From Candidatus Lokiarchaeum ossiferum (lineage in GTDB: Archaea; Asgardarchaeota; Lokiarchaeia; Sigyniarchaeales; Promethearchaeaceae), in assembly GCA_025839675.1 (NCBI GenBank), contig CP104013.1, forward strand, positions 3,233,121 through 3,297,120: a stretch of 64,000 nucleotides of DNA, read 5' to 3'. Both the position numbers and the translations under genes were made by a program. Below are positions 31,542 to 51,762 of the stretch, piece by piece (position 1 is the stretch's first letter; every line of letters begins with the position of its first letter). Under the pieces are notes generated by a model. That model ran no database searches and was not told the DNA's origin. It saw only the letters and a list, made by a program, of their open reading frames with translations.

Positions 31542-31693
31542 TACTTCTTTCCCTTGTGGTATTTTGATTTAATTAAAATATAAATTAGTATTACATTTCA
31601 GTATATACTAGGTGGACTAAATGGCCATCGATCAAATCGCTTATTGTGATTTAGATACTTAATATTCCAATTCCTTTTTTTTAGTCATTATGT

Positions 31694-32856: not shown

Positions 32857-32861
32857 TTGAA

Positions 32862-33530: not shown

Positions 33531-33558
33531 TATTTGGGATATTAAACAATATTTCCCT

Positions 33559-33891: not shown

Positions 33892-33959
33892 CAATACTAA
33901 TAAGATGGGTTGACAATTGAATTTTTTGGAGAATTTAGGATGCTCAAATAGGCATGAAC

Positions 33960-34187: not shown

Positions 34188-34563
34188 GCCGATTTCTTCA
34201 TGTAGTGGTATCCGACGATGCCGATCTTGATCGAAAGAAATCGTTTCCCTATCATCGCATCAAGAGTCCTTCTTCTCTTCAAGCGAGAAATACTATGAAA
34301 GCGGTTTCATTACCCCGATCGACCCTTATTGGTTTTTTTGAATCCGTCCACAATCGATCAATCAAACTTCCGTTTCCCTTATCGGTAAGCTATCTTCCGT
34401 GATTGCAATAATGCCATCATGGGAGCAGTTTTTTTTATTTTATAATTCAATGTATTTTTTATACAGAAAATTCTGGTTAATTGTATTTTTGATTCAGTTA
34501 ATTTAAATATTTAGTGTATAATATAGTCATAAGAAAGGGGTTGAAGGGAATCTCCCCCTTTTT

Positions 34564-35442
34564 TTGAAGGTATACAAAATGAACGAAAACCGATTGAAAA
34601 CTAAAAATACAATAACGCCTTTGCTAGGCTTTGTATTTTTATTTCTCCTGCTTGCAGGACAATTTTCCGAAGGAAATGCCGCCTATCAACCTCCGGTGGA
34701 ACCTCCTGAAGTAAATTTGAATGCGCCGTCTACCGTCATCGCGGGAACCTCCTTTACTGCCTCTATCTATATCCAAAATTATCCCGGAAGCAGTTATGGG
34801 TATGTTCAATGTTATGAAAATGGTGTATGGCAAAATGTCAAACGAGTTACGATCTCCTCGTCCCATGTGAGTGTGAGTCTTCCGACGAGCCCATACTATG
34901 AAAGATCAGTTTTATATCGCGTAAGGTATCGGGCTCCTTCTCGTTGGATTTACAGTAATACGGATAGCGTCAAAATTAATTTTGGTAGAACAATGTATCT
35001 TGAAGGACGAACTTGGGAAAAACAAATTCGTGATCAAAGCGGATTAAATGATTATTATGCGAGTGAATCCCATCACTACACTTGGGCTGCAAATACCAAT
35101 GAAATTTCGGTGAGTACTACTGGGATAAATTATAACAGGTTTATTGGAATGTCCACAACTTTTGTCGCTCAAAGCACGAGTATTCGAATTGACTTCGATT
35201 CCAAAGAATCGACGAACAAATATAGCGGAGTAGGCCAATATTCAATTATTTATGATCTCGATTGGGAAGTTGTTGGTTGGCTCTACTTTAGCGATTCCAC
35301 TTCCTATACTCATCACACTCACTTGTTTACAGAATTAGATGTAGGACAATCCTACTACTATTTTCATGCAAGTCGCGATAATTCCGTTTATCAAGGGTTC
35401 ACAATTACTTCCAAGAATTTTGTGTTGGATTTAACCCCTTAA
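34564..35442 (+). CDS. Secreted beta-rich protein, tandem paralog 1
   Basis: Signal peptide. AAYQPPVEPPEVNLNA...IQNYPGSSYG...RWIYSNTDSV...FVAQSTSI is shared with the next gene. Confidence 0.45.
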   Translation: MKVYKMNENRLKTKNTITPLLGFVFLFLLLAGQFSEGNAAYQPPVEPPEVNLNAPSTVIAGTSFTASIYIQNYPGSSYGYVQCYENGVWQNVKRVTISSSHVSVSLPTSPYYERSVLYRVRYRAPSRWIYSNTDSVKINFGRTMYLEGRTWEKQIRDQSGLNDYYASESHHYTWAANTNEISVSTTGINYNRFIGMSTTFVAQSTSIRIDFDSKESTNKYSGVGQYSIIYDLDWEVVGWLYFSDSTSYTHHTHLFTELDVGQSYYYFHASRDNSVYQGFTITSKNFVLDLTP

Positions 35443-35446
35443 ATAA

Positions 35447-36349
35447 TTGGAGGAACAAACAATGACAAAAACAAATTTAAGCAAATCAAAAACGATGATT
35501 CGTGTCCTAGGAACTTTAGTGGTGTTCATGACTCTATTTGGGGAAATGTCGGGGGTTTTAGCTGCCTACCAACCTCCCGAAGAACCTCCGGAAGTGAATT
35601 TTAATGCTGCATCCTCCGTCGAAGCGGGAAAGACTTTTTCCGCAACCGTAGCAATTCAGAATTATCCTGGAAGTAGTTATGGAAATGTTCAACGATATGA
35701 GAGTGGGACCTGGCGAAATGTAAAAAGTGTGAGTTTTTCATCCTCCTACATGACTATCAGTGGAATCCCAAGTCATACTTTTCAAGGATCCGCTTCCTAT
35801 CGATTAAAATATCGTCATAATGGACGATGGATTTATAGTAATTCTGACAGTGTGAATGCCTATTTCGGAAGAATTATGTATGTGGATGGAATTGCTTGGA
35901 CCAAAGAAGTACGGGATCTTTGGGGTTGTTTTGATTATTATGCGACTGATGCTTCCAAGGTAGATTGGACCGTGTCGGGGAATGAAATACGAGTCGAACA
36001 AGTCTCCTATTCTGGTAGAACTTTTGGAATGTCCACGAATTTTGTTGCCCAAAGTACAAGTGTCAAAATCAGCGTTGATGAGCGAAGTACCTGCTATCCA
36101 GGGTATGCATTGACCCCGGCGGTTCGTGTATATAAATCAAATTGGGGCTATCCCATCGTTAACAATGAACATCCTATTATCGATAAAGAATATTTCACCC
36201 AGTCAAGTAATTACGTCTACTCAGAAAAAATCCTTTCAGGTTTAACAGTAGGTGAAACATACAATATCTATCTTTGTTATCAAGATACTCATGGGTACGT
36301 GGATTTTACCATGTATTTCAAGAACATAGTGATTGACACTACGCCCTAA
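35447..36349 (+). CDS. Secreted beta-rich protein, tandem paralog 2
   Basis: AAYQPPEEPPEVNFNA...IQNYPGSSYG...RWIYSNSDSV...FVAQSTSV. Confidence 0.45.
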   Translation: MEEQTMTKTNLSKSKTMIRVLGTLVVFMTLFGEMSGVLAAYQPPEEPPEVNFNAASSVEAGKTFSATVAIQNYPGSSYGNVQRYESGTWRNVKSVSFSSSYMTISGIPSHTFQGSASYRLKYRHNGRWIYSNSDSVNAYFGRIMYVDGIAWTKEVRDLWGCFDYYATDASKVDWTVSGNEIRVEQVSYSGRTFGMSTNFVAQSTSVKISVDERSTCYPGYALTPAVRVYKSNWGYPIVNNEHPIIDKEYFTQSSNYVYSEKILSGLTVGETYNIYLCYQDTHGYVDFTMYFKNIVIDTTP

Positions 36350-36373
36350 GAGAAATTCTTACTTTCCCTTTTT

Positions 36374-37102
36374 TTAATAATTTTCGACCATGCGTTCCCA
36401 CTTCGTTTTCCTAGGATATTTGGATTGTATTAGAGTCTTTTGGCGCGCTTTTCGTTTCCGACGTGCCTTTCCACTTTCAAAACGACCAAAATCTTCCACA
36501 AACACGGCGATGTCCGTTTCCTTTACCTGATAGGAAGGAGTTTTAAGCGAGGACGGAAGAGCCGATCGATCAAATTTCCGATGATAGACCCGCCCCATCT
36601 CCTCTAAAATATTCGCTGAGAGAATGAAGGTCACACTCGGATTGGATGTAAACATCTGTCGAATCCGCTCCCGTTGTGATCGCTGGTGATCACAAAAATG
36701 CAGCAGGATATTGGAATCGATCAAAACCATTGCATCCGCGGGTAAGTTGGCAATGTCTTCGGGCCAATAGGCTTCATAGTCCAAAAATTCCCGGAGGTTG
36801 ATCAACAGATGATGATCCAAAGACGCCACCCCCCATTGGTTTTCGGCGGCCAGATAGGCCACGATCCAATCATCCACCCCAAAGGCCAAGGGACGATAAG
36901 GATGTTGTTCTTGAATAACCCCGTAATGTTGCTCATAGAGGGCTAACTTTGCGGCAGGCACCGAGAGCGTATAGAGGTCAGGAAGAATTCGTGGAGGTAC
37001 ATTTAAACCTCGGAGAAAATCTACAACCTTCGGATGATGGGGGAGAGGCTCCAACACATGACAATTTTCGAGACAGAAGGGAAACTCGGCAAAGGGGGGC
37101 AT
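36374..37102 (-). CDS. PIN-like nuclease-domain protein with an unknown N-terminal domain and a basic tail. This is the intact copy of the cassette gene.
   Basis: The C-terminal half has the PIN-like acidic quartet: VLIDSNILL (D), ILEEMG (E), ETDIAVF (D), VEDFGRF (D). The tail is RRKRKARQK. The gene looks markedly GC-richer by eye than its surroundings. Confidence 0.35.
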   Translation of the reverse strand: MPPFAEFPFCLENCHVLEPLPHHPKVVDFLRGLNVPPRILPDLYTLSVPAAKLALYEQHYGVIQEQHPYRPLAFGVDDWIVAYLAAENQWGVASLDHHLLINLREFLDYEAYWPEDIANLPADAMVLIDSNILLHFCDHQRSQRERIRQMFTSNPSVTFILSANILEEMGRVYHRKFDRSALPSSLKTPSYQVKETDIAVFVEDFGRFESGKARRKRKARQKTLIQSKYPRKTKWERMVENY

Positions 37103-37270
37103 GAATCATCTTTTGGTTTCTAAGAAACTATAAAAAGATCACGATTGTGACAGAATTGAGATTTGCGAGTGGTTTTTATAGATCAAAAGCAGTAGTATGG
37201 ATGTAACCATTTGAATACAAAAGGATGAAATGACAAAAGTGGCATTCAAACTTTAGTCCACATCTCTTTA
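37098..37270. promoter_or_regulatory. Conserved divergent promoter/leader module, copy B
   Basis: A TATA-like ctataaaaag (37128) abuts the dyad tcacgattgtga. An oppositely oriented ggtttttatag (37171) follows. The conserved leader ends about 85 bp before the ATG at 37356. Confidence 0.5.
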
Positions 37271-37355
37271 AGACCTAAGGATAATTTTCAGAAAATGTAT
37301 TCGAAACTGGAAACATGAAATTACTAATAACGCAAAACCAAAAAGTGAAAAAAAT

Positions 37356-40300
37356 ATGAAACCAAAAAAATTAATCTTCATCTTTTTTGTAGGAATCCTC
37401 ATGGTCCCCATCTTCCCCCAAGCGCAACTTTCCTTCGCAAGTGCAACGGTGGGTCAAAGTAATGGAGTCTGGGAAATAACCTATAATACTGATGATAGTG
37501 CAAATGTTGGTCCACTCTATGATGCCAACGGATATACTGCAATTTCCGAGTTAGATCCTGCAAGTTCAACCAATACATGGTACGATTATTCCCCATTAGA
37601 AGCAGGACATCAAGAATTAGACTTTGAATGCAATATCAAATTTGAAAATGGAGGTCGGAAACACATTTATCTGTATTTGGATAACGATCCCTCCCAATAT
37701 TTCCTACTGCAATATGAAAATGGGGATGTGTTTTCATACACTACAGATAATTGGGTAAAACAAAGCCAAAATATGGATTATAGTTATAATACTTGGCTGT
37801 CGTTTCAGTTAGAACTGATTCAAACCAGCTCCACCACAAAATTATTAACCGTAACTTTAGGAACCGATTCTTTTTCGATCGAACTGGATAGTGACAGTAC
37901 TGTTGACGCACTCAAAATGCGCACAATGACGGCCGGAAGTTCCGTCTTCTTTTCTGACGTCGAAGTGTCTTATTTGGAGGAATCCTGGCAAAGAATTTAT
38001 CCTGCGGAAAGCTCTGCATCTGCAATACCCCTTAATGATGAAACGGACGATGGACAGCTGTATTCAGATATTTATGAATTGGAGATGGACGTGGGACTGA
38101 ATACGTGGTATGAATATACCAAATCGGGAATTGAATACAATTTCTTGCATTTTGATTGCAATTTGAAATTTCTGGATGGAGGAGCTAGAAAATGGTATTT
38201 TTATTTTGATGATGGGGCTTATTTCATTATCAACTTCGAAAATCAATGGATCAGATCATATGTTTCGAATGCTGACGTGCCAAACTGGGTTTCTCAGAGG
38301 TCTTACGGCTATGGGGATTGGAATCATATCGAATTTGATATCGTTCAAAAGAATTCTGTAACGAAAGAATTAAAAATGAGCATAAATGGGCTCCCATTTA
38401 CTTATCCTGTCCTTATGTCTAGTGGATTCAATGTGAAAATTGAATACTTAAGAGTGCGTCTTCAAACTAGCGGAAGTCTTTTGATTTCCGATATGGCAGT
38501 CGATAATGATCAGGATGGATTGGATGAGGTTGAGGAAGCTATGCTAGGGTCTGATCCTCTCCTTAAAGATACTGATGGCGATTTTGCTTATGATGGGGAA
38601 GAAGCCTCTATCTATGGAACGGATCCAACGGTTCCCGATGAGGCAAATGGTTTTACACTGATCTATCCAGAAGGTGGTCCAGGCAGAGTTGATATTTCCA
38701 CAGATTCATCTACCGGTTCAAAGATATATCAGCTAAATTCGGAAGGTTCATCTAATACTTGGTTTCAACATCGATTGAATGGCCTAAGAGCTCAATCTGT
38801 CGGATTTCATTGTAAAATAAAAGTGCATGATTCTCAAGAAAAATACTTGTACTTCTATTTTGACGATGGTGATTATTTCATAGTTCGATTTATTAATCTA
38901 CATCTCTATACCACCTATATTCATAATGGGGTTGGCAACGGGTGGAGGGATCAGTATATTTATTATGGGGACCAGGATTGGTTGGATTTATCAATCACTA
39001 TTACTGGAGGACCCAATATCAAAACATTAGATGGATCTTTAGATGGAAATCCCTTTGATGATTCCGAATTCATGTATTCGAAAGGTGTTTTTGACAAGCT
39101 TAAAACCCGCCAAACTGGAACGGATAATTTGTGGAGTTTCACGGAGTTTATGATTGATTCGGATTTGGATGAGTTATCTGATGTAGAGGAACTTGATTTA
39201 GGCACCGACCCGACGGATGCGGATTCGGATGGGGATGGGTTAACCGATGGAGAAGAAGTCAATAATCATGGCACTAACCCTCTAGTGGCGGATTCGGATG
39301 GTGATAAATTTTCTGATCTCCTCGAAATTCGTGGGAAATTAAATCCTATGGATCCCAGCGATGTATTTACAGATGAATGCACCCTTGGAGGTTATGTTCC
39401 AAGCGAATGGGTGATTCCAAGCTCAGATGTGGGCATCCAAGCAATACCAAATGATTGGGATGATACTAGTTATTTAAGCGACAATTTTATGCTCTCTATC
39501 AGTCCCACATATCGGCACGATTCTCGCAGTATAGAAATTCCATTACAACAACTAGATGTCATGGAAAATTTTGCATTTTCATGTTATGTTGGGCAAAATT
39601 GGTTAGGAGGTGAAGAATCATGGCAAATTTATATTAAAGATACTTCAGGAAAAGGTTTTGCTTTGAACTATAAAGGTGATCAATTCTACATTAGTGATAC
39701 TACACTTCTTTCTTTCAGCTCGGATATTATTCAAGTACCTAATCCAAATAAAATTATGCATGAAATGAGGATAACCTTAAAATTTGTTGGCGATCATACC
39801 GATATTTTCCTATATTTTGCAGATACTTCAATGGGTAACTACTCCATCGAGATGGGAAAAATGTTATCCAAAATCATTGTTACTCGAACAACGACTTTTA
39901 ATACTCCTGAGATACCCTCCTTTGGATTTGATAATTTTAAAATAATCCAATGGAAATGGCCTTATTATAAATTGATGGAAACTTATCCTTCTAATGAAGG
40001 GAGAGATGGGCATTTAACCATTAATAACGTCCAAAAAGGCGTTGGTAAAGGACCTGGGTTCTATGAAATAATGTCCTCTGTCGATTTTGATCGGAATTGG
40101 AATGATGATGGTTTGGAAGGGATGCACTTGGATGGTTCTTTTTGTGATACAGGTTCCTTCAATTTTGTTTCTCATGCAAAATTATTTGATATATTCGGGA
40201 CTGGAATTACCCAACCTCAATCAAGTATAACTAAAATGGAACTTGATTTAAAGATCAATGGTCCTGATGGTCCTATCGATTTATCTACAGCAAATGGAAT

Positions 40301-40841
40301 CAGTAATCTAATAGATCCATACTTAATTAACATGATTGAAAATTTGGACACTATTACAGATTTAAATGAGGTTACTGAAATTCTTGAAGGAGTTGGGACA
40401 CTCTACCAAGTAACAGAACAATTATTAGATATGTATGATACCGTACCTGAATCACTTCAAGATGTTTTGGGACCAATTTCCCTGGTTATGGATCTTGTGG
40501 GTTTTTATTCTGAGGAAAATACACCACATCCCGAGTGGACTTGTGATACATTAGATAATGATCCTTATACCTATCAAGTCAAATATGACTTTGATTTCGT
40601 ATCTGGAGTTTCTTGGGGTAGTACAAATTTTGCTATGGGATTTAATTTAAATTTTTACGAAGTAATTGAACATCTTGAAGAAACAATGGATATTGGTGAC
40701 AGATACACTTTTACGATAACTCAAAGAACATTCTTGACTGGGATTTCCTATAATTGGATCTTTGGAAGATGGGAAGAATCCACAGAAATTATGGTTGAAG
40801 ATACTTTTAAATTTGAACTCACATCCACCGATTCTTTTTAG
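37356..40841 (+). CDS. Giant secreted protein with three roughly 190-aa jelly-roll/LamG-like repeats separated by Ca-binding DxDxDG (TSP3-like) linkers
   Basis: Signal peptide MKPKKLIFIFFVGILMVPIF. Internal repeats carry NTWY.Y...FDCNLKF..GG.K.Y.YFDDG.YF. DTDGDF, DSDGDGLTDGEE and DSDGDKFSD motifs. Confidence 0.55.
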   Translation: MKPKKLIFIFFVGILMVPIFPQAQLSFASATVGQSNGVWEITYNTDDSANVGPLYDANGYTAISELDPASSTNTWYDYSPLEAGHQELDFECNIKFENGGRKHIYLYLDNDPSQYFLLQYENGDVFSYTTDNWVKQSQNMDYSYNTWLSFQLELIQTSSTTKLLTVTLGTDSFSIELDSDSTVDALKMRTMTAGSSVFFSDVEVSYLEESWQRIYPAESSASAIPLNDETDDGQLYSDIYELEMDVGLNTWYEYTKSGIEYNFLHFDCNLKFLDGGARKWYFYFDDGAYFIINFENQWIRSYVSNADVPNWVSQRSYGYGDWNHIEFDIVQKNSVTKELKMSINGLPFTYPVLMSSGFNVKIEYLRVRLQTSGSLLISDMAVDNDQDGLDEVEEAMLGSDPLLKDTDGDFAYDGEEASIYGTDPTVPDEANGFTLIYPEGGPGRVDISTDSSTGSKIYQLNSEGSSNTWFQHRLNGLRAQSVGFHCKIKVHDSQEKYLYFYFDDGDYFIVRFINLHLYTTYIHNGVGNGWRDQYIYYGDQDWLDLSITITGGPNIKTLDGSLDGNPFDDSEFMYSKGVFDKLKTRQTGTDNLWSFTEFMIDSDLDELSDVEELDLGTDPTDADSDGDGLTDGEEVNNHGTNPLVADSDGDKFSDLLEIRGKLNPMDPSDVFTDECTLGGYVPSEWVIPSSDVGIQAIPNDWDDTSYLSDNFMLSISPTYRHDSRSIEIPLQQLDVMENFAFSCYVGQNWLGGEESWQIYIKDTSGKGFALNYKGDQFYISDTTLLSFSSDIIQVPNPNKIMHEMRITLKFVGDHTDIFLYFADTSMGNYSIEMGKMLSKIIVTRTTTFNTPEIPSFGFDNFKIIQWKWPYYKLMETYPSNEGRDGHLTINNVQKGVGKGPGFYEIMSSVDFDRNWNDDGLEGMHLDGSFCDTGSFNFVSHAKLFDIFGTGITQPQSSITKMELDLKINGPDGPIDLSTANGISNLIDPYLINMIENLDTITDLNEVTEILEGVGTLYQVTEQLLDMYDTVPESLQDVLGPISLVMDLVGFYSEENTPHPEWTCDTLDNDPYTYQVKYDFDFVSGVSWGSTNFAMGFNLNFYEVIEHLEETMDIGDRYTFTITQRTFLTGISYNWIFGRWEESTEIMVEDTFKFELTSTDSF

Positions 40842-41035
40842 ATTTTTATTGCTTTTTTTTTCTCAGGCTATAAGTATATTTTTTTTCTCATTTTTGATAA
40901 TATTTTCTTGATTTAAACGGAGAAAATATGAGTTATGAAATTTTGATGAAAATCAAGAAATTCTTTTCATTATGAAAACCCGAAAAATAAGAAGAAAAAC
41001 ATCTTTCCGAAACATCCATTGATATCTCATCAAGC

Positions 41036-41190
41036 ACCTATAAAAAGATCACGATTGTGATAGTTGTGCAAATTGCGAGTGGTTTTTATAGATCAAAAGC
41101 AGTATTATGGATGTAACCATTTGAATACAAAAGGATAAATGGACAAAAGTGAGAAACCGATTTTTGTTCCACATCTCCTTAATAGTAATT
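41036..41190. promoter_or_regulatory. Conserved promoter/leader module, copy C (lacks the minus-gene stub)
   Basis: cctataaaaagatcacgattgtgatag...ggtttttatagatcaaaagcagtattatggatgtaaccatttgaatacaaaaggat. Confidence 0.5.
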
Positions 41191-41249
41191 TTTCAATATC
41201 CTTTTTGTATTCTACTTGAACAATATTTAAAAGAAAAAAGGTAAACATA

Positions 41250-44200
41250 ATGAATCAAAAAAAAAGACTGCTATCGTTATATGCGTTGCTTCTTTTGACC
41301 TGTTCCGCCTTAATATATACTAATATGGGAACTGGGGTCGCAGAAATCAATATTTCAGAATGGACAAATGTGCCAAATTATGGTCCTTCGGAATTATCCA
41401 ATTTCATGGATGAAGATCGAGGGGAGGTAATGAAAATATATGATGCCGGATGGGGATTAGTCCAAAAGGATATAATTCCGCAATATATTGCAGGAAACAA
41501 AATTTGGTATTCCTATTGCGTGAAAGTAACTGGTGGGGAATCGAATGATTATGGGGGGGTGAATTTAAGCCCATCTACCATCAACACTGGGGCCGTAGGA
41601 ATGCGAATTCATGCGGGAACGAGTTTAAAATATTGGCTTGGAGATGGACAAGAGCATGATACATTCATTGACGTAGAAACAGATCAATGGTACCACATAG
41701 GATGTTCATATGAGTCTGATGGTCAATTCGAAGCATATTTGGATGGGGAGATGATCCTTTCAGAACAAGCCAAGCCTATCAGCAATTTAAATTATGTTTA
41801 TGCTGCAACATGCTCCCAATCAACTTTTCTGGATGATATCTATGTTGGAGTTTCTAAGGATGAAGCATTTAATAGTTTCCAAGATGAAGTAACTACCATA
41901 CTAATTGATGATTTTTCGGAAGATTCGATTGGGTTTTTACCCTTAGATTGGGAACTAACTGCAGGCGGATATTCATCTTTTAGAACTGTAGAACTAGCCG
42001 AATCTCCATATGATCAGGTTTTAAGAATCTATGATTATGGACAAATTCCCACCGTATACTCAAAAGTGGAAAAAAAAATTCCCGCTGGTTTTGGATCTAT
42101 TGAATGGGATTTAAAAACAGATTCACCAGGAAATAATAATGGTTATTTCGGATTGATGGAAGGGGATAATTGGTTGATATCGATTGGGATAATAAATAAT
42201 CAATTCAGAGTTTATTACCACAATGATCATGCTTCGTATAGTGTCTACGACACAAACGTTGTTGCTTCAAATCAATGGACCCACCTTAAAATGGAGTATG
42301 ATGGCGAGCAAGATGATTGTCGAATATTTGTTAATGGGGTTGAGGTAAGAAGTACACCATTCAATACAAAATATGCCTCTTTTGTTGATGGTCTATATTT
42401 ACACTCAGGAGAAACTGGATCTGGAAAAAGTTATTATGACAACATTCAAGTGAACTGGGTAAAACAGCGTGTGGATTCTTTTATGGAATATGCTGGCATT
42501 ATCAATTTTGATGATAGTTACAATCAAGATCCTCTAGCAAGCTGTCAAGAATGGTCTTCCGATGTTAATTCGGGCTATCAAATCCTAGATGCAGTGACCA
42601 CACACTCAAGTGTATTGGCAATAACCGATTTAGTTTCTTCTTCGAGCTGCTTTACAAAACTAAACATTAATACTCCTTTAGGGGTTGGAGGCTGTGTAGA
42701 AGGATGGATATCTGGATCGAGTATCATAAATAATGCGTATATGGGCATTAATTTTGGGGATAATTACTGGTTATTGTCCGTGGGGATCAATAATGGTCAT
42801 TTTAAAGTTTATCATCGAACGAGCTATTCAACATATAGTACCGCTGTTTCTACCATAGAAGCAAATCCAAATCAATGGTATTTTGTTTGTTTATATTATG
42901 ATGGTATGTCTGATATTTGTACTGTATCGATAAATGGTGTTACTATTGGACAATATAGTCTTTATGACGTTGCTGGAATTACATCAATATATCTCCATTC
43001 GGGAGAAAATGGGGGGGGTACAAGTTACTATGACTCAATTTCGTATGATTGGGCAAATGAATATGATGCAGGAGATGCAAGAATAATAGACTTCGATAGG
43101 GACCATTTAAGCCACAAGTATGAAGAGACCCATATTTATGAATCTGGATTAAAAACTTCTCCTTGGAAATGTGATTCTGATAATGATAGGGTAAATGATT
43201 GGGATGAAATCTGTGGTATCTACGGATATATTACTGATCCAACTCGGATTGACTCTGAACCGATTGGATCTGAAGATGGGCTGAATGATTATTTAGAATT
43301 ATTTAGATATCATACCGATCCAACTCACTATGATTCTGACCGTGATGGGCTGACTGATGGAGATGAAGTCAACTTATATGGCACCGACCCGACCACGGCG
43401 GATTCGGATGGGGATGGGTTGACCGATGGGGAAGAAATAAATGGGTATGATATGATGTATCTAGACGAGCTTTATCATGAACATAAATATGCAACATATT
43501 ATACAAATCCGCTTCTTGTTGATTCAGATAATGATAATTGGAGTGATAAGCAAGAACTTGATTTGATACAAGCTGATTTAGATCAAATTCATGAACCTAA
43601 TCCTGCGGTAGATAACTATCGGTATTTAGATCCAATGTGCCGAGATAGTGATTTAGATTTTCTTCCCGATGGATGGGAAGAATATTATGGACTCGATCCT
43701 TGTGAATATAATTCAGAGCTGGAATTAATCGAAAACAATGTTCCTGATATATATTATTTCTTTGCGCCAATTCAAGAACCAGATCAAGAACGGGTCTCGG
43801 GATTGCGAATTGCCTTGATATTCATTAATCCAGACATAGTTTCGCCAAGTTGGGCAAATTATTACTCTCGAGTCTTCGATAAGCTAAATTATGATGTAGT
43901 GCATGTTTATACAGGTTACACCCGAAATCAGTTTTATAATGAATTGTATCAGTGGACACCCCTTATTCAAGCGGATGATGAATTATTTATAATGATCCAA
44001 GGACATGGGCTGGTGGAGGACAATGAAGAAGAAACTCCGTTGGCGTATTTCACTCTTTATGATGACGATGAGGTGTTTGACCAGGATGTTGGTGAAATTT
44101 CGGGACAAGAGTTTTTAAATCGATTGAAGTTATTTAGTGCCTACAGGAAATGTGTGTTTTTTGATACCTGTTTCGCTGGAAAAGTGCTTGAAAATTTCGA

Positions 44201-44498
44201 TTCGGAAATAACTAAAGTCTTTCAAACTACTGATGCCACCCACGCACAGTATAGAACAGTCAGCAAATTTGATAAGATTATGCAGAATGCTAAGTGGGAG
44301 AAAAGAAATACTTATGTTGCATCATTTTTCTGGGATACTTTAGGTGCAACCACTCTAAGTGAAGATCCAATTTTCAAATATATTCAGGCGGATTTGGCAT
44401 TTGGTTCTCTTTTACCGTGGAGTCGAACGGGTTATCAAGGAGGAACTATTTTGAATCCGGGCTGGAATTATTTGGAACGTTATAATATATTTGTCTAA
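41250..44498 (+). CDS. Giant secreted LamG/jelly-roll protein with TSP3-like Ca-binding repeats and a C-terminal caspase-like peptidase domain
   Basis: Signal peptide. WYHIGCSYESDG.FEAYLDGEMI is LamG_3-like. DSDGDGLTDGEE is present. The C-terminus has LFIMIQGHG ... KCVFFDTCFAG. Confidence 0.55.
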   Translation: MNQKKRLLSLYALLLLTCSALIYTNMGTGVAEINISEWTNVPNYGPSELSNFMDEDRGEVMKIYDAGWGLVQKDIIPQYIAGNKIWYSYCVKVTGGESNDYGGVNLSPSTINTGAVGMRIHAGTSLKYWLGDGQEHDTFIDVETDQWYHIGCSYESDGQFEAYLDGEMILSEQAKPISNLNYVYAATCSQSTFLDDIYVGVSKDEAFNSFQDEVTTILIDDFSEDSIGFLPLDWELTAGGYSSFRTVELAESPYDQVLRIYDYGQIPTVYSKVEKKIPAGFGSIEWDLKTDSPGNNNGYFGLMEGDNWLISIGIINNQFRVYYHNDHASYSVYDTNVVASNQWTHLKMEYDGEQDDCRIFVNGVEVRSTPFNTKYASFVDGLYLHSGETGSGKSYYDNIQVNWVKQRVDSFMEYAGIINFDDSYNQDPLASCQEWSSDVNSGYQILDAVTTHSSVLAITDLVSSSSCFTKLNINTPLGVGGCVEGWISGSSIINNAYMGINFGDNYWLLSVGINNGHFKVYHRTSYSTYSTAVSTIEANPNQWYFVCLYYDGMSDICTVSINGVTIGQYSLYDVAGITSIYLHSGENGGGTSYYDSISYDWANEYDAGDARIIDFDRDHLSHKYEETHIYESGLKTSPWKCDSDNDRVNDWDEICGIYGYITDPTRIDSEPIGSEDGLNDYLELFRYHTDPTHYDSDRDGLTDGDEVNLYGTDPTTADSDGDGLTDGEEINGYDMMYLDELYHEHKYATYYTNPLLVDSDNDNWSDKQELDLIQADLDQIHEPNPAVDNYRYLDPMCRDSDLDFLPDGWEEYYGLDPCEYNSELELIENNVPDIYYFFAPIQEPDQERVSGLRIALIFINPDIVSPSWANYYSRVFDKLNYDVVHVYTGYTRNQFYNELYQWTPLIQADDELFIMIQGHGLVEDNEEETPLAYFTLYDDDEVFDQDVGEISGQEFLNRLKLFSAYRKCVFFDTCFAGKVLENFDSEITKVFQTTDATHAQYRTVSKFDKIMQNAKWEKRNTYVASFFWDTLGATTLSEDPIFKYIQADLAFGSLLPWSRTGYQGGTILNPGWNYLERYNIFV

Positions 44499-44525
44499 AT
44501 TTCGGGATAGTGAGTAGTTTTGCTC

Positions 44526-44864
44526 TCACTTTTTTTTTATTTCTTCTGCATTTAATGAATCCCCAAAAATGATTTCCTTACGCTTTCTATCAACCAACCG
44601 CAAATTTCCCGTAAATAAGGGCATATGAAGCCACGTATTTAATAATTTTTCCCCTCCCAGTACATGATCCCATGATTTTAATATTGTTCTTTCGTTTTTC
44701 GATATTTTCGCAAGGCACGAGCTACAAAAAAAAATAGGTAATGGATATGGAATGGAATTATTGGGTCTTTTTTCGGTTACCGTAATAAATGGGGACATAT
44801 CAGCACGCCACTGTTGACATATGTAACATAAGTTTTTGGAAGGTACTTTGTTTTTGGCCATCAA
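44526..44864 (-). CDS. Small CxxC...CxxC zinc-binding protein (cassette partner)
   Basis: LCYICQQW...FFCSSCLAK. Paralog of 33559..33891. Confidence 0.45.
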   Translation of the reverse strand: MMAKNKVPSKNLCYICQQWRADMSPFITVTEKRPNNSIPYPLPIFFCSSCLAKISKNERTILKSWDHVLGGEKLLNTWLHMPLFTGNLRLVDRKRKEIIFGDSLNAEEIKKK

Positions 44865-44934
44865 TGTTAGCTATGAAGGGCAGACTATTGAAATTTTTGG
44901 CGAACTTCTACTCCTTGGTCTTTCTGAAATTCAC

Positions 44935-45006
44935 TTAGTTTATATTGATGATGAGCCGTAAATTCCAATTCTCGAGATCGAAGGGGACCTCGGAGGGGAG
45001 GGGCAT
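44935..45006 (-). pseudogene. 23-codon stub of the PIN-like cassette gene (MPLPSEVPFDLENWNLRLIININ*)
   Basis: Starts at the conserved gggcatgaatc position of module D. Aligns with MPPFAEFPFCLENCH. Confidence 0.35.
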
Positions 45007-45165
45007 GAATCGCCCTATGTTTTTGGGATGCTATAAAAAAAACTCGCTTGTGACAGAAGTGTAAATTTCGTGTGGTTTTTATAGATCAAAGTCAATATTA
45101 AGCATGTAGCCATTTGAATGCAAAAGGATGAAATGACAAAACTGGAATTCAAGCTATCGTCTTTG
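45001..45165. promoter_or_regulatory. Conserved divergent promoter/leader module, copy D (more diverged)
   Basis: gggcatgaatcgcc...gctataaaaaaaactcgcttgtgacag...gtggtttttatagatcaaag...catttgaatgcaaaaggatgaaatgacaaaa. Confidence 0.45.
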
Positions 45166-45230
45166 CCTCTTCCATTCCTCACCTTGATTTTCTGCCAAAA
45201 GTTCTTCAATGGGATACAGTGTGATAAAAA

Positions 45231-48029
45231 ATGTTGGATAAAAATAAAAAAGGCAAGAAGAAATTGTCCTTGGGATCTAAAATCGGAATGTGCCTCTTCA
45301 TTGTTGCGATGATCTCTACCAATAGCCCAAATCTGATAAAAAGCGCTTCAGCAATTTCCGTGAATGATTGGGAATTAAATCCTGAATGGGAAGGGTGGGA
45401 AGAGGATTCTACTCTTGGAAATCAATATACACGCGTCGCTGAATATTCAGATTTAGGCTCACGAGATCCGGTGTTGGGACTCCGCGATGGTTCCTATTAT
45501 GGAGAAGCGAAAATAAAGAATGAATTTCCCAACCAACCTGCGGGGGCTTTTTCCACCGAATTGAAAATCGTTGAAACCTCTTATGGAAATGAGGATTGTT
45601 CTTTTATTCGATTTTATTCAGGAACAACAATTGCTGCTGCTTTAATTATTGATAATAATTTTAGATATGCTCCTGACCAAGGAGTATCCGATGCCCCTAT
45701 AAGATCGATCAATGTGGAATTGGAGACGTGGTACCACTTTGCTGCTGAATGGAATAGTCAAGCAACTGGAACTAATGAGTGGACATTTTACATTAACGGT
45801 CAAATTATTGCTCAGTTCGATTCGACCAATCCGTTTTCAGGAATTAATAATATCACAATTAGTACATATCTTGGCGATATAACTCATAATCTGACCTTAC
45901 ATAACCTACGACATATGGATGATTCTTCCACAATTAACCAAATTTGGGAAGAAGATAAATTTTTTGAATGGACTAGCGGTGGGACGAATCAATGGTGTCA
46001 TATTTCGACTAACATTTTTGAAGATCGAAACGTGTTAAAACTAAACGATGGTTCATGGGTCGGGGAAGCAATCGCAACAGCGAACTTTGATTTATCCGAA
46101 AAGGGATCGTTTTCTACAAATATTCGAATTGTTGATTCTGGTTATGGAGAAACAGATTGTTTCCTAATTAGATTTCTCTCAGGATCGACTGTGAGCAGCT
46201 ATATGACCATGTGGGAAGATCAAGGTGTAAATACGATCAGATTTTGTGGATCTGACGGCAATTCTTACCCCACAGGATCAACATACTCTACTAATGTGTG
46301 GAATGATGATTTCAAAGCCGAATGGGATTGCTCAGGAAGTGGTAAAGACCAATGGGTTTTTTCTCTGGGAGGCACAGTAATAAAGACATTTGAATCTGAA
46401 AAATACACTTCAGGAATTAATCAAATTTCGATTCGCTCTTTATATAGCAAACCAACCAATTATGTCTATTTTAATGATATTCAAATCGATTCGGATGATG
46501 ATGGTCTATCACGTAAAGAAGAATTGCTCTTTGGCACCGACCCGACCACGGCGGATTCGGATGGGGATGGGCGCGAGGACGGGGTGGAGATTAGATATAT
46601 GACAAATCCTATAATAAATGAAGTCTTTTGGGAAGATTTTGAAGAAATTTCTTTACCAAGTGGATATATTGATAATGGAGATACTATCGGAGAGTGGCAA
46701 GTGGCTAAAGATAATGATGATTTTTGTGATCTATATGTCGATCAGAGTCCAAGCTATTGGGGAGAATCTTCTCAAGTTTTATGGCTTCATACTACTGATG
46801 AAAGTCTCATTGATATTTATAAAAATGATATCGCTTCATCTGGAGATAATTTGGTTTATTTTCGCTCCTCTATTAGTATAGGACAGCTTCAGTATCAACA
46901 GTTTTATGTTGATTTTACCTATGGAACTTCTTCACGCTTGCATTTTCTGTTTTCTAGTGGAGAATTATTTTTCTGGGATTCCTATTATATATATGGGAAA
47001 CACCTTACTGCTTATAAACCTGTATATGATGCAGCGAGCAATGTTGTTGTTTATAGTGAAGATCAAAAAATTGATTTCGAAGTATTCATTGATAAGGACC
47101 AATCCACTTGGACTCTGAAATGGAATGGACAAGCAATAATGAAGCAATATGATCTTGATTTTGGTAATACTTTTAATCGAGTGATTTTAGGCACACCATC
47201 AACATCTTCTGGACGAGTTTTTCTTGATGATCTCGTTTTTGAACATGGGAAAATCACTAAAGATGATTCGAAGACCTTATACAATAAAATAGTTCCGAAT
47301 ATAGTCGCCTGTTTACCTGGGTTCAATGAGGAATTCTCTGAAGATTCTATTGGCGATACTAGCCTTGTAGGATTAGAAATATCATCAATCGTTTCTCGAG
47401 ATACTGAGTATTCCTTCAATTTTCCTTTTGTTTCAGTTAGTTATGATGATGAAATTGAAACGGGTCCACATCATGATGAGGTTCGAACAATTGGTCAAGA
47501 ACATTGGTATTGGTACTATAAAATTTATGGAGATATTGAATTTTACTCAATCGACTTAACAGAGTATTCATATTCTGCTTCCTTTTTGGCATTTTATTCA
47601 TTTGACCCATATTCAACTCAAAACACCGTACTTACCAATCATCCCTATTCAGATCTCCGCGATGATTGCTCGTATTTAAATCAGGAAACATTTGATTATT
47701 GGGTCCAGCCATCATATACTTCTGAATACTCTTGTCCTCAACAATACACGGATTCTGGGAGTCAAACTCAAAAAGGATGGGATTACACCATTAGTAAACA
47801 AACCACATTAGGATTGAATTTTGAGTTATCCTTTGCCACACCAGTCCAATCAATTTCTCTTCCCCTTGGCATATCTTTTGCATTCAATGTTGAACGAGAT
47901 TTAGATTTCTGGTACTATCTGATATTGAAAGATACCCATACTTCTACTAAATCAGTAACTTATAATATGAATGCCAATGTAGCTAAAGGTTTTTATACTT
48001 TTTTTATTAGTGATTTTAAGATTCACTAA
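45231..48029 (+). CDS. Giant secreted LamG/jelly-roll surface protein with one TSP3-like Ca-binding motif
   Basis: Signal/anchor region (KIGMCLFIVAMISTNSP). Repeated ETDCFLIRF..G motifs. DSDDDG...DSDGDGREDG. Confidence 0.55.
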   Translation: MLDKNKKGKKKLSLGSKIGMCLFIVAMISTNSPNLIKSASAISVNDWELNPEWEGWEEDSTLGNQYTRVAEYSDLGSRDPVLGLRDGSYYGEAKIKNEFPNQPAGAFSTELKIVETSYGNEDCSFIRFYSGTTIAAALIIDNNFRYAPDQGVSDAPIRSINVELETWYHFAAEWNSQATGTNEWTFYINGQIIAQFDSTNPFSGINNITISTYLGDITHNLTLHNLRHMDDSSTINQIWEEDKFFEWTSGGTNQWCHISTNIFEDRNVLKLNDGSWVGEAIATANFDLSEKGSFSTNIRIVDSGYGETDCFLIRFLSGSTVSSYMTMWEDQGVNTIRFCGSDGNSYPTGSTYSTNVWNDDFKAEWDCSGSGKDQWVFSLGGTVIKTFESEKYTSGINQISIRSLYSKPTNYVYFNDIQIDSDDDGLSRKEELLFGTDPTTADSDGDGREDGVEIRYMTNPIINEVFWEDFEEISLPSGYIDNGDTIGEWQVAKDNDDFCDLYVDQSPSYWGESSQVLWLHTTDESLIDIYKNDIASSGDNLVYFRSSISIGQLQYQQFYVDFTYGTSSRLHFLFSSGELFFWDSYYIYGKHLTAYKPVYDAASNVVVYSEDQKIDFEVFIDKDQSTWTLKWNGQAIMKQYDLDFGNTFNRVILGTPSTSSGRVFLDDLVFEHGKITKDDSKTLYNKIVPNIVACLPGFNEEFSEDSIGDTSLVGLEISSIVSRDTEYSFNFPFVSVSYDDEIETGPHHDEVRTIGQEHWYWYYKIYGDIEFYSIDLTEYSYSASFLAFYSFDPYSTQNTVLTNHPYSDLRDDCSYLNQETFDYWVQPSYTSEYSCPQQYTDSGSQTQKGWDYTISKQTTLGLNFELSFATPVQSISLPLGISFAFNVERDLDFWYYLILKDTHTSTKSVTYNMNANVAKGFYTFFISDFKIH

Positions 48030-48593
48030 TATTTTTTTTTAACCTAGCCAAATTTTTAGTATATTTTGAAGCCCTAGAGAAAAAGAATAGTCCTGAATTT
48101 CTTAACTCGAAAAAAAACTTTATAGGAAAAACTTGCCAAAGGGGTTAAAAAAAGATTTTGATCCCAAAGGGGAAGAAAACTGACAGGTGTGGAATTGGAA
48201 GCGATTTTGTGACTGTTTCATCGGTTTTGATCAAATGATAAAAGATCAGTTATTAGGAAGGGATGAATGACTATCTGAAAAATCACTTTTGGGACTGAAT
48301 TAAGCGGAGTATTAGATAATATAGAAAGTGTATAGAGGTTGAAAAAGATTCGAGGAAGCATAGCGAACCAACAGGATTTGCAAAAGAAAGGACCGCCAAC
48401 ATGAGAAATCAAGGTTATGAGACTACCACCATCCAAAATGACTACATGAAATTCATATCGCGTCTATAATTGAAGATATTTTTTGGTGTGAATCTTTATC
48501 CTAAGAAAAGTCAAACCTAGCAAAATAAAGCGGTTTTTTTTAATACTTCTACTTTACATTTCAATCCGATAGGAAAAGTAGTGGATGGATGCT

Positions 48594-48752
48594 TTACTCG
48601 TTCTCTGGTATTAAAGCAGCCTTCAATTTCCGAACCGCTTCCTTGATCACTTCTGCCCGTGAACTATACCCAAATTTGGGATTCTCGAGGATTTTATCAA
48701 TATATTCTTCCACAAAAGGTTCAGGCAACGAAATCGAAGCAAATTTTCCCAT
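48594..48752 (-). CDS. CopG/Arc/MetJ-type ribbon-helix-helix protein (52 aa). Missed by the ORF track because it is under 60 aa.
   Basis: Hand translation gives MGKFASISLPEPFVEEYIDKILENPKFGYSSRAEVIKEAVRKLKAALIPENE*. The strand SISLP...Y, the FGYSSRAEVIREA helix and its length are the classic RHH signature. Confidence 0.55.
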   Translation of the reverse strand: MGKFASISLPEPFVEEYIDKILENPKFGYSSRAEVIKEAVRKLKAALIPENE

Positions 48753-49435
48753 ATTTGCTCTAGAGATGCCCTACTATTTATGTTTGTTGCTTGGTTTAAG
48801 TTCAATTATGTATCCATGATATATAAGTGAAGTATGATAGATCGATAAATTATATTTATAAGGATGCGTTTCATACAATTATGTATCAAACACAGATCAA
48901 GCACGAGTAATGCTGATTCTTTTTGAACATGTCTTCCGAGTTTATAAGTTTCAAAAAGTAATTACAGTATCATAAATCTGGAAAAACAGATCTGTTTGGT
49001 AACCTATAGATTAGCGACAAACGTCCCAAGAGGTCTCATTATGTCTCAAAAACCTAGAATATCAATAACAACAGGGCAAAGGTCAACATCCTGTGTCAAT
49101 CCTACCAAGTCTCCGTCAGAACCGCACGGATCTCCCATATCTGCCATCAATCCATTGGCAGATCAATCGCTTTCTCCTTCTGGATCTAAATTTTATTATC
49201 AGTATTTTAACGATCAAAATCATATTGAATGTTTTTGAACGTGAGCGATTATTATGGGAAAGCACTCATGAGGAACTCAGCTACTTACTTTTACATGTAT
49301 CCAATAAAAATGACCTTATATCATCTCTATCAACAAAAAAGAGCTTCAAAATTAAAGGATCAGATAATCTTACCTTATGCTAGATTTCAATAAAAAATCA
49401 TGATCAGATTTAATTTTGGAATATTAGAAAAAGAT

Positions 49436-49541
49436 TGGTGGGAAAGGTGGGCTTCGGACCCACGACCTCTGCCTTATCAGGGCAGCGCTCGATTGCCTTC
49501 ATATGAAGAGATACATACAATCCAGGCTAAGCTACTCTCCC
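49436..49541 (-). tRNA. tRNA-Ile(GAU) candidate with a roughly 28-nt non-canonical (D-loop) intron and a genomically encoded 3' CCA
   Basis: Minus strand: GGGAGAG-TA-GCTT-AGCCTGGAtt[GTATGTATCTCTTCATATGAAGGCAA]TC-GAGC-G-CTGCC-CTGATAA-GGCAG-AGGTC-GTGGG-TCCGAAG-CCCAC-CTTTCCC-A-CCA. The acceptor stem is 7 bp with one G-U. The anticodon loop CUGAUAA gives GAU. The T-loop reads TCCGAAG, which is atypical (no U55). About 30 extra nt lie between the D-loop and the D-stem 3' strand, flanked by GATTG/CAATC pairing. Confidence 0.55.
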
Positions 49542-50124
49542 GTTTCTGTTTTTACAAAACTGTCTGATATTTAACAATTTTATAATAGTCGGGATAAACA
49601 GACTATAATTGTCACTCATGATGGAACAATTAAAAAATTTCCGATTTTCATTCCATAAAAAGTTCTCTGTTTCAATCCGAACAGTGGTTTGACAGTTTTA
49701 GGGGATTCAATTTACATGGGTGGCATTTGCTTCGTGGGGGGGAATTGTCGAAAGTATATAAGAATCTAGGATCTAAAAAAAAAGTCGAGTTGTGCGAAAA
49801 AAACCAAGAAATCGCAATGTGAGAAGGACAATTTTTTACAACAACTGAGCAAAGAAAAACCATAGAATACTAGGAATTATAAAATGGATTTCAGAGATTT
49901 GAGTGAAGAAGGGGTAAAGTTTTAAAAAAAATTGAAAGAAATAGTTTTTTGAAAGAAAGTGGGAAGATTCCACATAATTCTTCAAGTAATTTATTATTTA
50001 CAAGCGTCTCAAGTTCTACATCGGTGGAGGATTTTAAAATCAAAGAGATTTTTTCATTTGTCATGGATCTTTTTTGATCGAATCTTTTTTAATTATTTAT
50101 GACTAAATATAAATTAAGATAAAA

Positions 50125-50589
50125 ATGAAAGACAAACAAAATGTAGGAAATTCTGGAGAATATTATATTGCAGCTTTCCTTTCTGCACGAAATTTTATAG
50201 TAACCATCACCCTAGGAAGAGCTATTGGCTATGATTTATTAGCGGTCAATCCAAGCGGAAAGTTAATCAAAATATCTGTAAAAACTCGCGATTCAAACTC
50301 AACTCATAGATTTGTGTTATCAGAAAAATCTGAGTCATTAAAATCCGAGGATCTGTTCTATGCATTTGTTAGAACGAATAAATTTGAATCTCTACCCGAT
50401 TTTTGGATGATTCCATCAAAAATTGTTGCTGAGCAAACATATAATAGCCATAAGAAATGGCTTCAAGAAGATAGCAATCACAAGGATAATACAATGCGAA
50501 CATTTTGGGTGAAAAATCATGATCTTTTCCCAAAGAATTGGGGAGAAACAATGGAGCAATATCATAATAGTTATTCTAGTTTGCTATAG
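50125..50589 (+). CDS. PD-(D/E)xK restriction-endonuclease-fold protein, Hjc-like
   Basis: GEYYIAAFLSARNFIV...GYDLLAVNPSGKLIKISVKTRD follows the Hjc pattern E...(P)DLIA...K.IEVKS, with S in place of the second acid. Confidence 0.35.
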   Translation: MKDKQNVGNSGEYYIAAFLSARNFIVTITLGRAIGYDLLAVNPSGKLIKISVKTRDSNSTHRFVLSEKSESLKSEDLFYAFVRTNKFESLPDFWMIPSKIVAEQTYNSHKKWLQEDSNHKDNTMRTFWVKNHDLFPKNWGETMEQYHNSYSSLL

Positions 50590-51489: not shown

Positions 51490-51762
51490 TTATTTCTTCA
51501 TTTTATTCCCAGAGGGTTTGTTGTTCTTTAAACGACGATTCTCAATAGAATTTGCTTGAGCTCGAGTTTTTGTAGTCTTCACAGATACTTTTGAAAAGTG
51601 TTTACTTGGATCCTGATGATGTTCTTTGATCCTTCTGTTAAGATTATTCGTCATCCCAGTATAAGCGGTTTTTCCTGATTTAGACTTTAAATTATATACA
51701 CCAGGGGATTTTGGAATTTTAGAACGACTTTTTTTTGTGTTAGAATATGTTTTCGATGTCAT
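51490..51762 (-). CDS. Small stand-alone GIY-YIG nuclease-domain protein (YhbQ/UPF0213-like)
   Basis: GVYNLKSKSGKTAYTGMTNNLNRRIKEH matches GIY-x10-YIG...N...R...H. 90 aa. Confidence 0.6.
   Translation of the reverse strand: MTSKTYSNTKKSRSKIPKSPGVYNLKSKSGKTAYTGMTNNLNRRIKEHHQDPSKHFSKVSVKTTKTRAQANSIENRRLKNNKPSGNKMKK

Follow-up and report, generated by a model that had tools for sequence, protein, structure and literature searches.

The 64,000-nucleotide stretch of the Candidatus Lokiarchaeum ossiferum genome analysed here (hereafter, the window) carries on its minus strand a tRNA-Ile(GAU) gene that is interrupted in the D-loop by a 29-nt insert and terminates in an encoded CCA (Table 1). Along that strand the locus reads GGGAGAG-UA-GCUU-AGCCUGG-[AUUGUAUGUAUCUCUUCAUAUGAAGGCAA]-UC-GAGC-G-CUGCC-CUGAUAA-GGCAG-AGGUC-GUGGG-UCCGAAG-CCCAC-CUUUCCC-A-CCA, with the insert in brackets. 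All four stems of the tRNA-Ile cloverleaf are there, including a 7-bp acceptor stem and a 5-bp stem that presents GAU in a 7-nt loop, and a discriminator base precedes the CCA; the precursor measures 106 nt and the spliced form 77 nt, the 29 extra nucleotides all lying within the D-loop. A preliminary description of this DNA had proposed a tRNA-Ile(GAU) gene about 30 nt too long, whose intron lies in the D-loop instead of at position 37/38 and which has an encoded CCA, and these points are confirmed. Among the loci used for comparison, which bear L numbers below, CCA is also genome-encoded in L009, L014, L015, L017, L018, L020, L021 and L023, and not in L019 or L022. The TATA-box-like TTAAATAT upstream of the gene shows no sequence conservation among orthologues.

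In its intact form the gene escapes the usual tools. ARAGORN, in its default and intron modes, called no tRNA at this locus when run over the whole window, and Rfam returned no match in the window either at the gathering score or at E<=1; a local E-value scan with Rfam at the locus gave a partial tRNA match of only 23.6 bits (threshold 29 bits). The check with ARAGORN suggested in the preliminary description thus had a divided outcome: no call on the intact gene, and a call of tRNA-Ile(gat) once 26-37 nt had been deleted in silico from the D-loop. The same call was obtained for the spliced form of every orthologue. In its low-threshold mode ARAGORN also made a weak tRNA-Asp call at 36796-36889, inside an open reading frame (ORF), which we took as a false positive. 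The tRNA-Ile(GAU) genes of L018-L022 are each missed by ARAGORN as well, and among the Lokiarchaeial loci the Rfam tRNA model reaches its gathering score only for L015 and L022.

Table 1. Features of the tRNA-Ile(GAU) locus and its surroundings. Positions are those of the window, except in the last row, where each belongs to the locus named.
Feature	Positions	Strand	Evidence and remarks
tRNA-Ile(GAU) gene, intron and encoded 3' CCA included	49436..49541	minus	106 nt; sequence reading, ARAGORN after intron removal, compensatory changes in orthologues
Exon 1: acceptor 5' strand, U8 A9, D-stem 5' strand GCUU, D-loop AGCCUGG through G19	49522..49541	minus	BHB scan; same junction in orthologues without D-loop intron
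BHB intron AUUGUAUGUAUCUCUUCAUAUGAAGGCAA, 29 nt, between D-loop positions 19 and 20	49493..49521	minus	BHB scan, shuffle test, MFE fold, orthologues reading AGCCTGGTCGAGC
Exon 2: D-loop UC, D-stem 3' strand GAGC, anticodon arm, variable loop, T arm, acceptor 3' strand, A73, CCA	49436..49492	minus	Sequence, alignment
Helix H, 5' strand: D-loop G15 C16 C17 U17a (GCCU)	49524..49527	minus	Pairs 4/4 with 49495-49498
Helix H, 3' strand: AGGC, close to intron 3' end	49495..49498	minus	BHB scan
Bulge 1: G18 G19 / A	49521..49523	minus	Predicted 5' splice site between 49522 and 49521
Bulge 2: A A / U	49492..49494	minus	Predicted 3' splice site between 49493 and 49492
Inner helix h', 5' strand: UUGUAUG	49514..49520	minus	7 bp with 49499-49505
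Inner helix h', 3' strand: CAUAUGA	49499..49505	minus	7 bp with 49514-49520
Anticodon GAU	49476..49478	minus	Sequence, ARAGORN
T-loop UCCGAAG; C55 at 49457 replaces the near-universal U55	49452..49458	minus	Sequence reading
Encoded 3' CCA	49436..49438	minus	Sequence reading; discriminator A73 at 49439
T5 run three bases past CCA, likely archaeal oligo-T transcription stop	49428..49432	minus	Sequence reading
Putative TATA box TTAAATAT, -33 to -26 from G1	49567..49574	minus	Sequence reading, in an AT-rich genome
Free-standing PD-(D/E)xK nuclease gene, I-Ssp6803I-like, neighbour of the tRNA gene	50125..50589	plus	Pfam, AlphaFold (AF2) model
GIY-YIG protein, 90 aa, single domain	51490..51762	minus	32.5 bits
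30.4-kb block, PhoU_div stop to tRNA 3' end	18992..49435		Synteny by blastn/tblastx and gene tables
Leader element copies	31752-31842, 37062-37289, 41026-41199, 44966-45192	plus	
Leader element copies, inverted	57428-57499, 50716-50862		
Orthologous tRNA-Ile(GAU) genes without D-loop intron	L018 10999; L019 13636; L020 6982; L021 6982; L022 6965	minus in L019	

The insert is a bulge-helix-bulge intron

We searched the gene for a bulge-helix-bulge (BHB) motif, that is, two 3-nt bulges on opposite strands with a 4-bp helix between them, each bulge being cut behind its second base. The three helices are named h (outer, exon side), H (central, 4 bp) and h' (inner, intron side) below. The strict scan yielded one clear best motif, GG/A...AA/U (slashes mark the cuts), whose outer helix is the 4-bp D-stem, lying beyond a single A14.C mismatch (C at 49491, next to bulge 2). 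Helix h is continuous at 5 bp in the orthologues L009 and L014, both of which fold as textbook hBHBh' motifs. When the insert was shuffled and the exons were kept fixed, an equally good BHB at an acceptable junction appeared in 44 of 50,000 trials. The minimum free energy (MFE) fold of the 106-nt precursor, at -39.4 kcal/mol (z = -2.4), holds H, bulge 1 and h' as proposed. The insert is an archaeal BHB intron, close to the canonical hBHBh' form and non-canonical only in its position after G19. The preliminary description, which had called the intron non-canonical, was right as to the position, but the motif itself is close to canonical; that description had also raised the case that no BHB-compatible structure would be found, and a strict 3-nt/4-bp/3-nt motif is present and conserved.

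We rejected an alternative fold proposed at the outset, a GATTG/CAATC stem flanking a CTTC/GAAG hairpin. The sequence does contain the CTTCATATGAAG palindrome and complementary GATTG and CAATC segments, but as the fold of the intron they fail: the local energy is -3.9 kcal/mol, against -11.3 kcal/mol for the BHB fold, the structure is not a BHB, and it is poorly conserved, with 2-4 of its 5 pairs kept in orthologues, compared with 4/4 for H in all of them. A group I ribozyme fold was likewise not found by Rfam anywhere in the window (at gathering score or E<=1), the insert being merely 29 nt long.

The intron site recurs in other archaea and shifts among orthologues

A pattern scan of one genome per archaeal or bacterial species, in which GTAGCTYAGCCTGG had to be followed after a gap of 12-42 nt by GAGCG-N5-CTGATAA, returned 12 tRNA-Ile(GAU) genes with an insert at or near the site of the window intron (L002-L013). 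They come from Woesearchaeota, Aenigmatarchaeota, Nanoarchaeia, Bathyarchaeota, two bins labelled Methanosarcinales and one uncultured archaeon, and a scan of metagenomes added three further contigs with a D-loop insert. The window gene should itself fit the pattern, yet the genome scan gave no L. ossiferum record, presumably because this region is masked in the collection or missing from it. The insertion point falls right after G19 in 10 of the 12 genome loci and is shifted by 1 and 3 nt in L003 and L005, respectively. Together with the window gene, the 12 loci and three contigs formed the set of 16 genes scanned for BHB motifs: H is paired 4/4 and accompanied by two 3-nt bulges in every one of them, and the 5' splice site lies directly after G19 in 14. 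The sequence of h' differs between species, with pairing kept in every gene scanned, and the 3' strand of H that pairs with GCCU is variable too (AGGC, GGGU or AGGU in Lokiarchaeial genes, GGGC in other archaea). A covariance model of the tRNA-Ile genes with D-loop introns was dropped in favour of a register-aware scripted count, because MAFFT misregistered the 3' ends of the introns, which are followed by 2 or 3 D-loop bases.

Besides the site, these 10 loci share with the window gene the pairing of GCCU with RGGY in H, followed by the AA/U bulge or a close variant. The DPANN and Bathyarchaeota genes differ in the mature product, which has a 10-nt D-loop of the AGCCUGGUUA type and a UUCRAAU T-loop, whereas the Lokiarchaeial genes have a 9-nt D-loop and UCCGAAG, AUCGAAG or UUCGAAG. 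The site shared by DPANN, Bathyarchaeota and Lokiarchaeia may reflect common descent or repeated gain. In five of the loci (L002, L008, L010, L011 and L012) the tRNA-Ile(GAU) gene has two introns, a 37/38 intron in addition to the D-loop intron after G19. The label Methanosarcinales on two of the bins with a two-intron tRNA-Ile seems odd for this tRNA type and may reflect mis-binning.

Further Lokiarchaeial loci were obtained through homologues of the upstream PhoU_div gene. One of them, L017, has a D-loop intron of another 29-nt sequence, with the same BHB motif (H 4/4) and the same UCCGAAG T-loop. Five PhoU_div-syntenic orthologues without a D-loop intron (L018-L022) read TAGCTTAGCCTGGTCGAGCG, which is the predicted spliced junction AGCCUGG^UC-GAGC; all five have introns of 34-56 nt at 37/38, to which L018 and L020 add introns in the T-loop. 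The tRNA-Ile(GAU) gene of L023 (6708-6829, minus strand; ENA bin Prometheoarchaeum_2) contains two introns. The first, in the D-loop, is 15 nt long and has a central helix only 3/4 paired; the second, 30 nt at 59/60, forms a perfect hBHBh' in which the T-stem serves as outer helix and T-loop U54-G57 as central helix. The D-loop of this gene reads AGCCUAGUU, which places A at position 18. The position of the intron in this one orthologous tRNA-Ile gene thus varies between species: D-loop, 37/38 or T-loop.

When 7 distinct spliced orthologues were aligned, every one of the 147 stem cells was paired and 10 of the 21 pairs had changed on both sides; none of 500 shuffles reached the observed values, and sliding the partners reduced pairing to 42-58%. 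Differences between the window gene and those of its closest relatives are confined to two pairs, 7-66 and 49-65, and in each case both members have changed: 7-66 is A-U in L017 and U-A in L015, and 49-65 is C-G in L015.

C55, A54 and the missing A21

U55, which as pseudouridine-55 contacts G18, is close to universal. The elbow of the window tRNA has the consensus bases G18, G19, U54, C56 and A58, together with a C at position 55 and a C where A21 is expected. The preliminary description had read the T-loop as UCCGAAG with C55, and this holds: the same T-loop recurs in L015 and L017, and the mature form in L023 has UCCGAAU, again with C55. Sister lineages (L009/L016 and L014) have AUCGAAG, with A54, at the same locus, and UUCGAAG is read directly in L019, L021 and L022; for L018 and L020 UUCGAAG is an assumption made when their T-loop introns were spliced out. 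The 9-nt D-loop without A21, AGCCUGGUC in the spliced window form, is present in all Lokiarchaeial genes. C55 and the absent A21 are common to orthologues and are therefore lineage traits. C55 is a genuine, conserved and unexplained deviation, kept as the T-stems and acceptor stems changed in a compensatory manner. A literature search on C55 in archaeal T-loops returned nothing relevant, and none of the loci examined contains another tRNA of the same organisms that would show whether C55 is lineage-wide.

Several observations weigh against reading the locus as a working tRNA gene with an intron. C55 and the absent A21 are off consensus and in an isolated sequence would suggest a pseudogene; the A14.C mismatch makes the outer helix imperfect and the motif slightly relaxed; the full BHB-plus-cloverleaf structure, at -35.6 kcal/mol, lies 3.8 kcal/mol above the predicted minimum; and the analysis covers the 64-kb window, so that a second, canonical copy of tRNA-Ile(GAU) is possible. 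A decaying tRNA-Ile pseudogene, produced by a random 29-nt insertion and a damaging U55-to-C mutation, would account for the departures from consensus at positions 55 and 21 and for the lack of a call by ARAGORN or Rfam. It is nevertheless extremely unlikely, given that the BHB motif of the insert is rare by chance, that 15 other archaeal sequences and L017 have an insert at or next to the same site, that the stem differences from orthologues are all compensatory, that three other organisms have kept C55 despite changed stems, and that the locus has been retained beside PhoU_div across Lokiarchaeia.

Another possibility concerns C55 alone: the working tRNA may not contain it, either because the base is edited from C to U or because this copy is specialised or non-translational and another gene supplies the canonical tRNA-Ile(GAU). 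The near-universality of U55 and the possible second copy both speak for this. Editing of C to U is, moreover, known in an archaeal tRNA, at position 8 in Methanopyrus kandleri (mentioned in PMC5829648). We consider such an explanation unlikely, as in relatives the syntenic orthologues of the window gene are ordinary-looking tRNA-Ile(GAU) genes, the other deviation, A54 in the AUCGAAG of sister lineages, suggests relaxed constraint and not editing, and evidence of editing was not found. The best explanation, which we hold with high confidence, is that 49436-49541 is a real tRNA-Ile(GAU) gene with a 29-nt BHB intron in the D-loop, syntenic and functional.

Neighbouring nuclease genes

The preliminary description had pointed to an Hjc-like PD-(D/E)xK protein and a GIY-YIG protein next to the tRNA gene. 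Both are present, but the likeness to Hjc gave way to a closer one. The product of ORF 50125-50589, a gene 584 bp from the tRNA 5' end, scores 24.8 bits with PDDEXK_5, just below the cut-off of 26.1, and its AF2 model (predicted local distance difference test score, pLDDT, 93.4) has as its best match in the PDB the homing endonuclease I-Ssp6803I (2OST; E 9e-6, TM about 0.55, sequence identity 13-16%), with Hjc next at about E 1e-3. Homologues with 45-58% identity occur in DPANN archaea and bacteria of the candidate phyla radiation (CPR), some of them named 'group I intron-associated PD-(D/E)XK endonuclease' by NCBI. I-Ssp6803I itself is located within a tRNA gene's group I intron, and its natural target is a tRNA gene; the ORF resembles it in fold and in its sub-threshold PDDEXK_5 family match, but is free-standing in a window that has no group I intron. 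In three loci examined for the context of homologues we found neither a tRNA nor a group I intron, and two of the homologues adjoin integrase-like genes.

The gene for the GIY-YIG protein is divergent from a CARF-like gene at 52385-53179 (264 aa; HFX_2341_N, PADLOC CARF3), and the pair (51490-53179) also stands beside tRNA-Ile in L017 (8554-10241). The PD-(D/E)xK gene is absent at this place in L017. We see no functional link between the PD-(D/E)xK gene and tRNA splicing, because L017 has the same intron without this gene and the gene is free-standing in all contexts examined; a homing-type relation to the tRNA gene has little support.

One could still imagine that the neighbouring nucleases act on the tRNA gene or its transcript, for instance that the I-Ssp6803I-like enzyme, as a free-standing homing endonuclease, cuts intron-less tRNA-Ile alleles and the D-loop intron protects the resident copy. 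The natural target of the best structural match, the group I intron-associated names of some homologues, the recent insertion of the gene so close to the tRNA and the varying intron positions among orthologous tRNA-Ile genes would all be in keeping with such a role. However, L017 combines a D-loop intron at the same site and C55 with the lack of the nuclease gene, D-loop-intron alleles occur in many lineages with unrelated neighbours, the homologue contexts and the window offer no group I intron, and the GIY-YIG protein is a single 90-aa domain, so we regard this role as very unlikely. In a broader version, the tRNA-Ile locus of Lokiarchaeia would be a site of conflict with selfish nucleases (PD-(D/E)xK, possibly GIY-YIG) that target tRNA-Ile, with the intron shifts and C55/A54 as escape changes and with breakage and repair having let the spot grow to 40 kb; this, too, we judge quite unlikely. 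Its milder part, namely a true lack of U55, and hence of pseudouridine-55, in the working tRNA-Ile(GAU) of several Lokiarchaeia, is more likely.

The tRNA gene lies in a hypervariable intergenic hotspot

The surroundings of the tRNA gene differ strongly among relatives. At this place L014, L015, L017, L018 and L020-L023 lack the 30.4-kb block 3' of the gene, and L014, L017, L018 and L020-L023 lack about 9 kb 5' of it; together these stretches make up a lineage-specific block of roughly 40 kb in which the tRNA gene lies. In L014, L015, L018 and L020-L022 the tRNA gene is found some 150-300 bp downstream of PhoU_div and shares its strand; in L023 it is at most about 25 bp from PhoU_div and on the opposite strand, an orientation that the window and L017 have too. 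Several of these relatives have the homologues of window 58.9-63.6 kb within the next 0.5-4 kb. Colinearity of L017 with the window covers window positions 10896-18991, after which come the tRNA gene, in the same inverted orientation, and the GIY-YIG and CARF-like genes (51490-53167 in the window); relative to L017, the window has gained 30.4 kb between the PhoU_div stop and the tRNA 3' end and about 1.5 kb on the 5' side, the latter including ORF 50125-50589. Across relatives, PhoU_div and a 207-aa gene (gene207) are separated by an intergenic space of between about 0.5 and 40 kb.

The block includes a full-length match to PDC-M23, a candidate defence system of PADLOC, in the form of a two-gene operon on the minus strand (20203-24232). 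Its helicase (1071 aa) matches M23B at 1167 bits and has a likeness to HamB of Hachiman as well, its 280-aa partner matches M23A at 234 bits, and GC content in this region is 0.28, compared with about 0.34 for the window. The block further contains several paralogous genes for LamG/TSP3 secreted proteins, the last large one of which ends at 48029, in agreement with the cassette region that the preliminary description had seen ending there before the tRNA. Each large LamG/TSP3 gene is preceded by a repeated leader- or promoter-like element of up to 174 nt with the core CTATAAAAAGATCACGATTGTGACAG (Table 1).

It was also suggested in the preliminary description that the tRNA may mark an island boundary or integration hotspot. 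The stronger form of this idea would take the tRNA gene as the attachment (att) site of an integrated mobile element, with the 30-kb block 3' of it as an integrative island that the tRNA delimits. The extra 30.4 kb relative to L017 does lie exactly at the 3' side of the tRNA, the classical side of integration, the block carries the low-GC PDC-M23 candidate and lineage-specific genes, and the spacing between PhoU_div and gene207 varies widely among relatives. Yet a partial copy of the tRNA, sought with blastn-short against the whole 64-kb window, was not found, the best matches of 9-12 nt being at chance level; a Pfam scan of ORFs >=150 aa in 19-58.8 kb (shorter ORFs lay outside the scan) detected no integrase or transposase domain; some 9 kb of extra DNA lies on the 5' side of the tRNA too; and much of the block consists of tandem paralogues with their own leader element, which suggests local duplication and not one integration. 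An att-bounded island is accordingly improbable. Because neither a partial tRNA duplicate nor an integrase domain was found, we place the tRNA gene inside a hypervariable intergenic hotspot and not at a demonstrable att-type boundary; of the original suggestion, the variable hotspot stands and the att-type boundary does not.

Some features of the paralogous genes deserve mention in their own right. Two direct repeats of 98 nt, 94% identical (53465-53562 and 57597-57694), flank a 1208-aa LamG/TSP3 gene (53669-57295, minus strand), and it looks as if this gene arrived or was duplicated as a cassette. One inverted copy of the leader, situated between the PD-(D/E)xK and GIY-YIG genes, is an orphan that no large gene follows. 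A 222-aa ORF (32862-33530) has 71-83% DNA identity to the 3' end of the 1082-aa gene at 41250-44498 (32877-33453 versus 43845-44421) and is probably a fragment or a C-terminal cassette copy. Far from the tRNA, ORF 4661-6127 on the minus strand encodes an archaeal SelB-like selenocysteine-specific elongation factor that is 100% identical to an L. ossiferum protein, with Promethearchaeota bins as the next hits.

Splicing and known counterparts

We propose that the gene is transcribed as a 106-nt precursor with the 29-nt intron between G19 and U20. The 4-bp central helix of the BHB would arise in this precursor by pairing of D-loop G15-U17a with the AGGC close to the intron's 3' end, the 7-bp h' would close the intron, and the D-stem would act as the outer helix h past the A.C mismatch. 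EndA, the archaeal tRNA-splicing endonuclease, would cut after the second base of each bulge (GG/A and AA/U) and an RtcB-type ligase would join the exons. The expected product, presumably used in translation, is a 77-nt tRNA with the 9-nt D-loop AGCCUGGUC, anticodon GAU, T-loop UCCGAAG and encoded CCA. No EndA gene lies in the 64-kb window, which is all that the search covered.

Such a mechanism would most likely be an ordinary one, because D-loop BHB splicing has been published, Asgard EndA reportedly has the required loop and other Asgard tRNAs are rich in introns. The D-loop BHB intron of Aeropyrum pernix tRNA-Thr2 is removed by EndA alone, provided that the enzyme has the Crenarchaea-specific loop (PMC3241643), and this L1 loop is reported to be conserved across TACK and Asgard EndA (PMC5829648). 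Within Asgard, Atabeyarchaeia and Freyarchaeia have introns in 92-95% of their tRNA genes, often at non-canonical positions and often several per gene, and some of these genes are missed by tRNAscan-SE (PMC11291895).

Each of these systems resembles the window gene in part. The pre-tRNA-Thr2(UGU) of A. pernix likewise has a canonical BHB in the D-loop instead of at 37/38, and its removal by EndA alone was shown experimentally (PMC3241643), but it is another tRNA from Crenarchaeota and not Asgard, whereas the outer helix in Lokiarchaeum has an A.C mismatch and splicing there is a prediction. The pre-tRNA-Glu(UUC) of M. kandleri also has an intron within the D-loop, at 20b/21 (PMC5829648); it differs in that its motif is a relaxed HBh' and an additional intron lies at 37/38, while the window gene has both bulges and one intron, after G19 and not before A21. 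The intron-rich tRNAs of Atabeyarchaeia and Freyarchaeia are the Asgard counterpart with non-canonical positions, in a study to which Lokiarchaeum did not belong (PMC11291895). With the window gene, the well-known class of archaeal BHB introns at non-canonical positions, reportedly abundant in Asgard already, gains a further example, and the current picture of archaeal tRNA splicing stays unchanged.

For genome annotation, the result identifies an essential tRNA-Ile isoacceptor gene (GAU) that is invisible to ARAGORN and to the Rfam tRNA model. It illustrates how Asgard tRNA sets can come to be incomplete, and a simple search pattern recovers genes of this kind. Modest extra interest attaches to the C55/A54 variants and the missing A21, which are rare departures from the consensus of the tRNA elbow, to the movement of the intron, to the recurrence of its site within 3 nt of 19/20 and to the defence-rich variable neighbourhood. 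The orthologue series as a whole is a compact natural experiment on the gain, loss and movement of introns in the closest archaeal relatives of eukaryotes.

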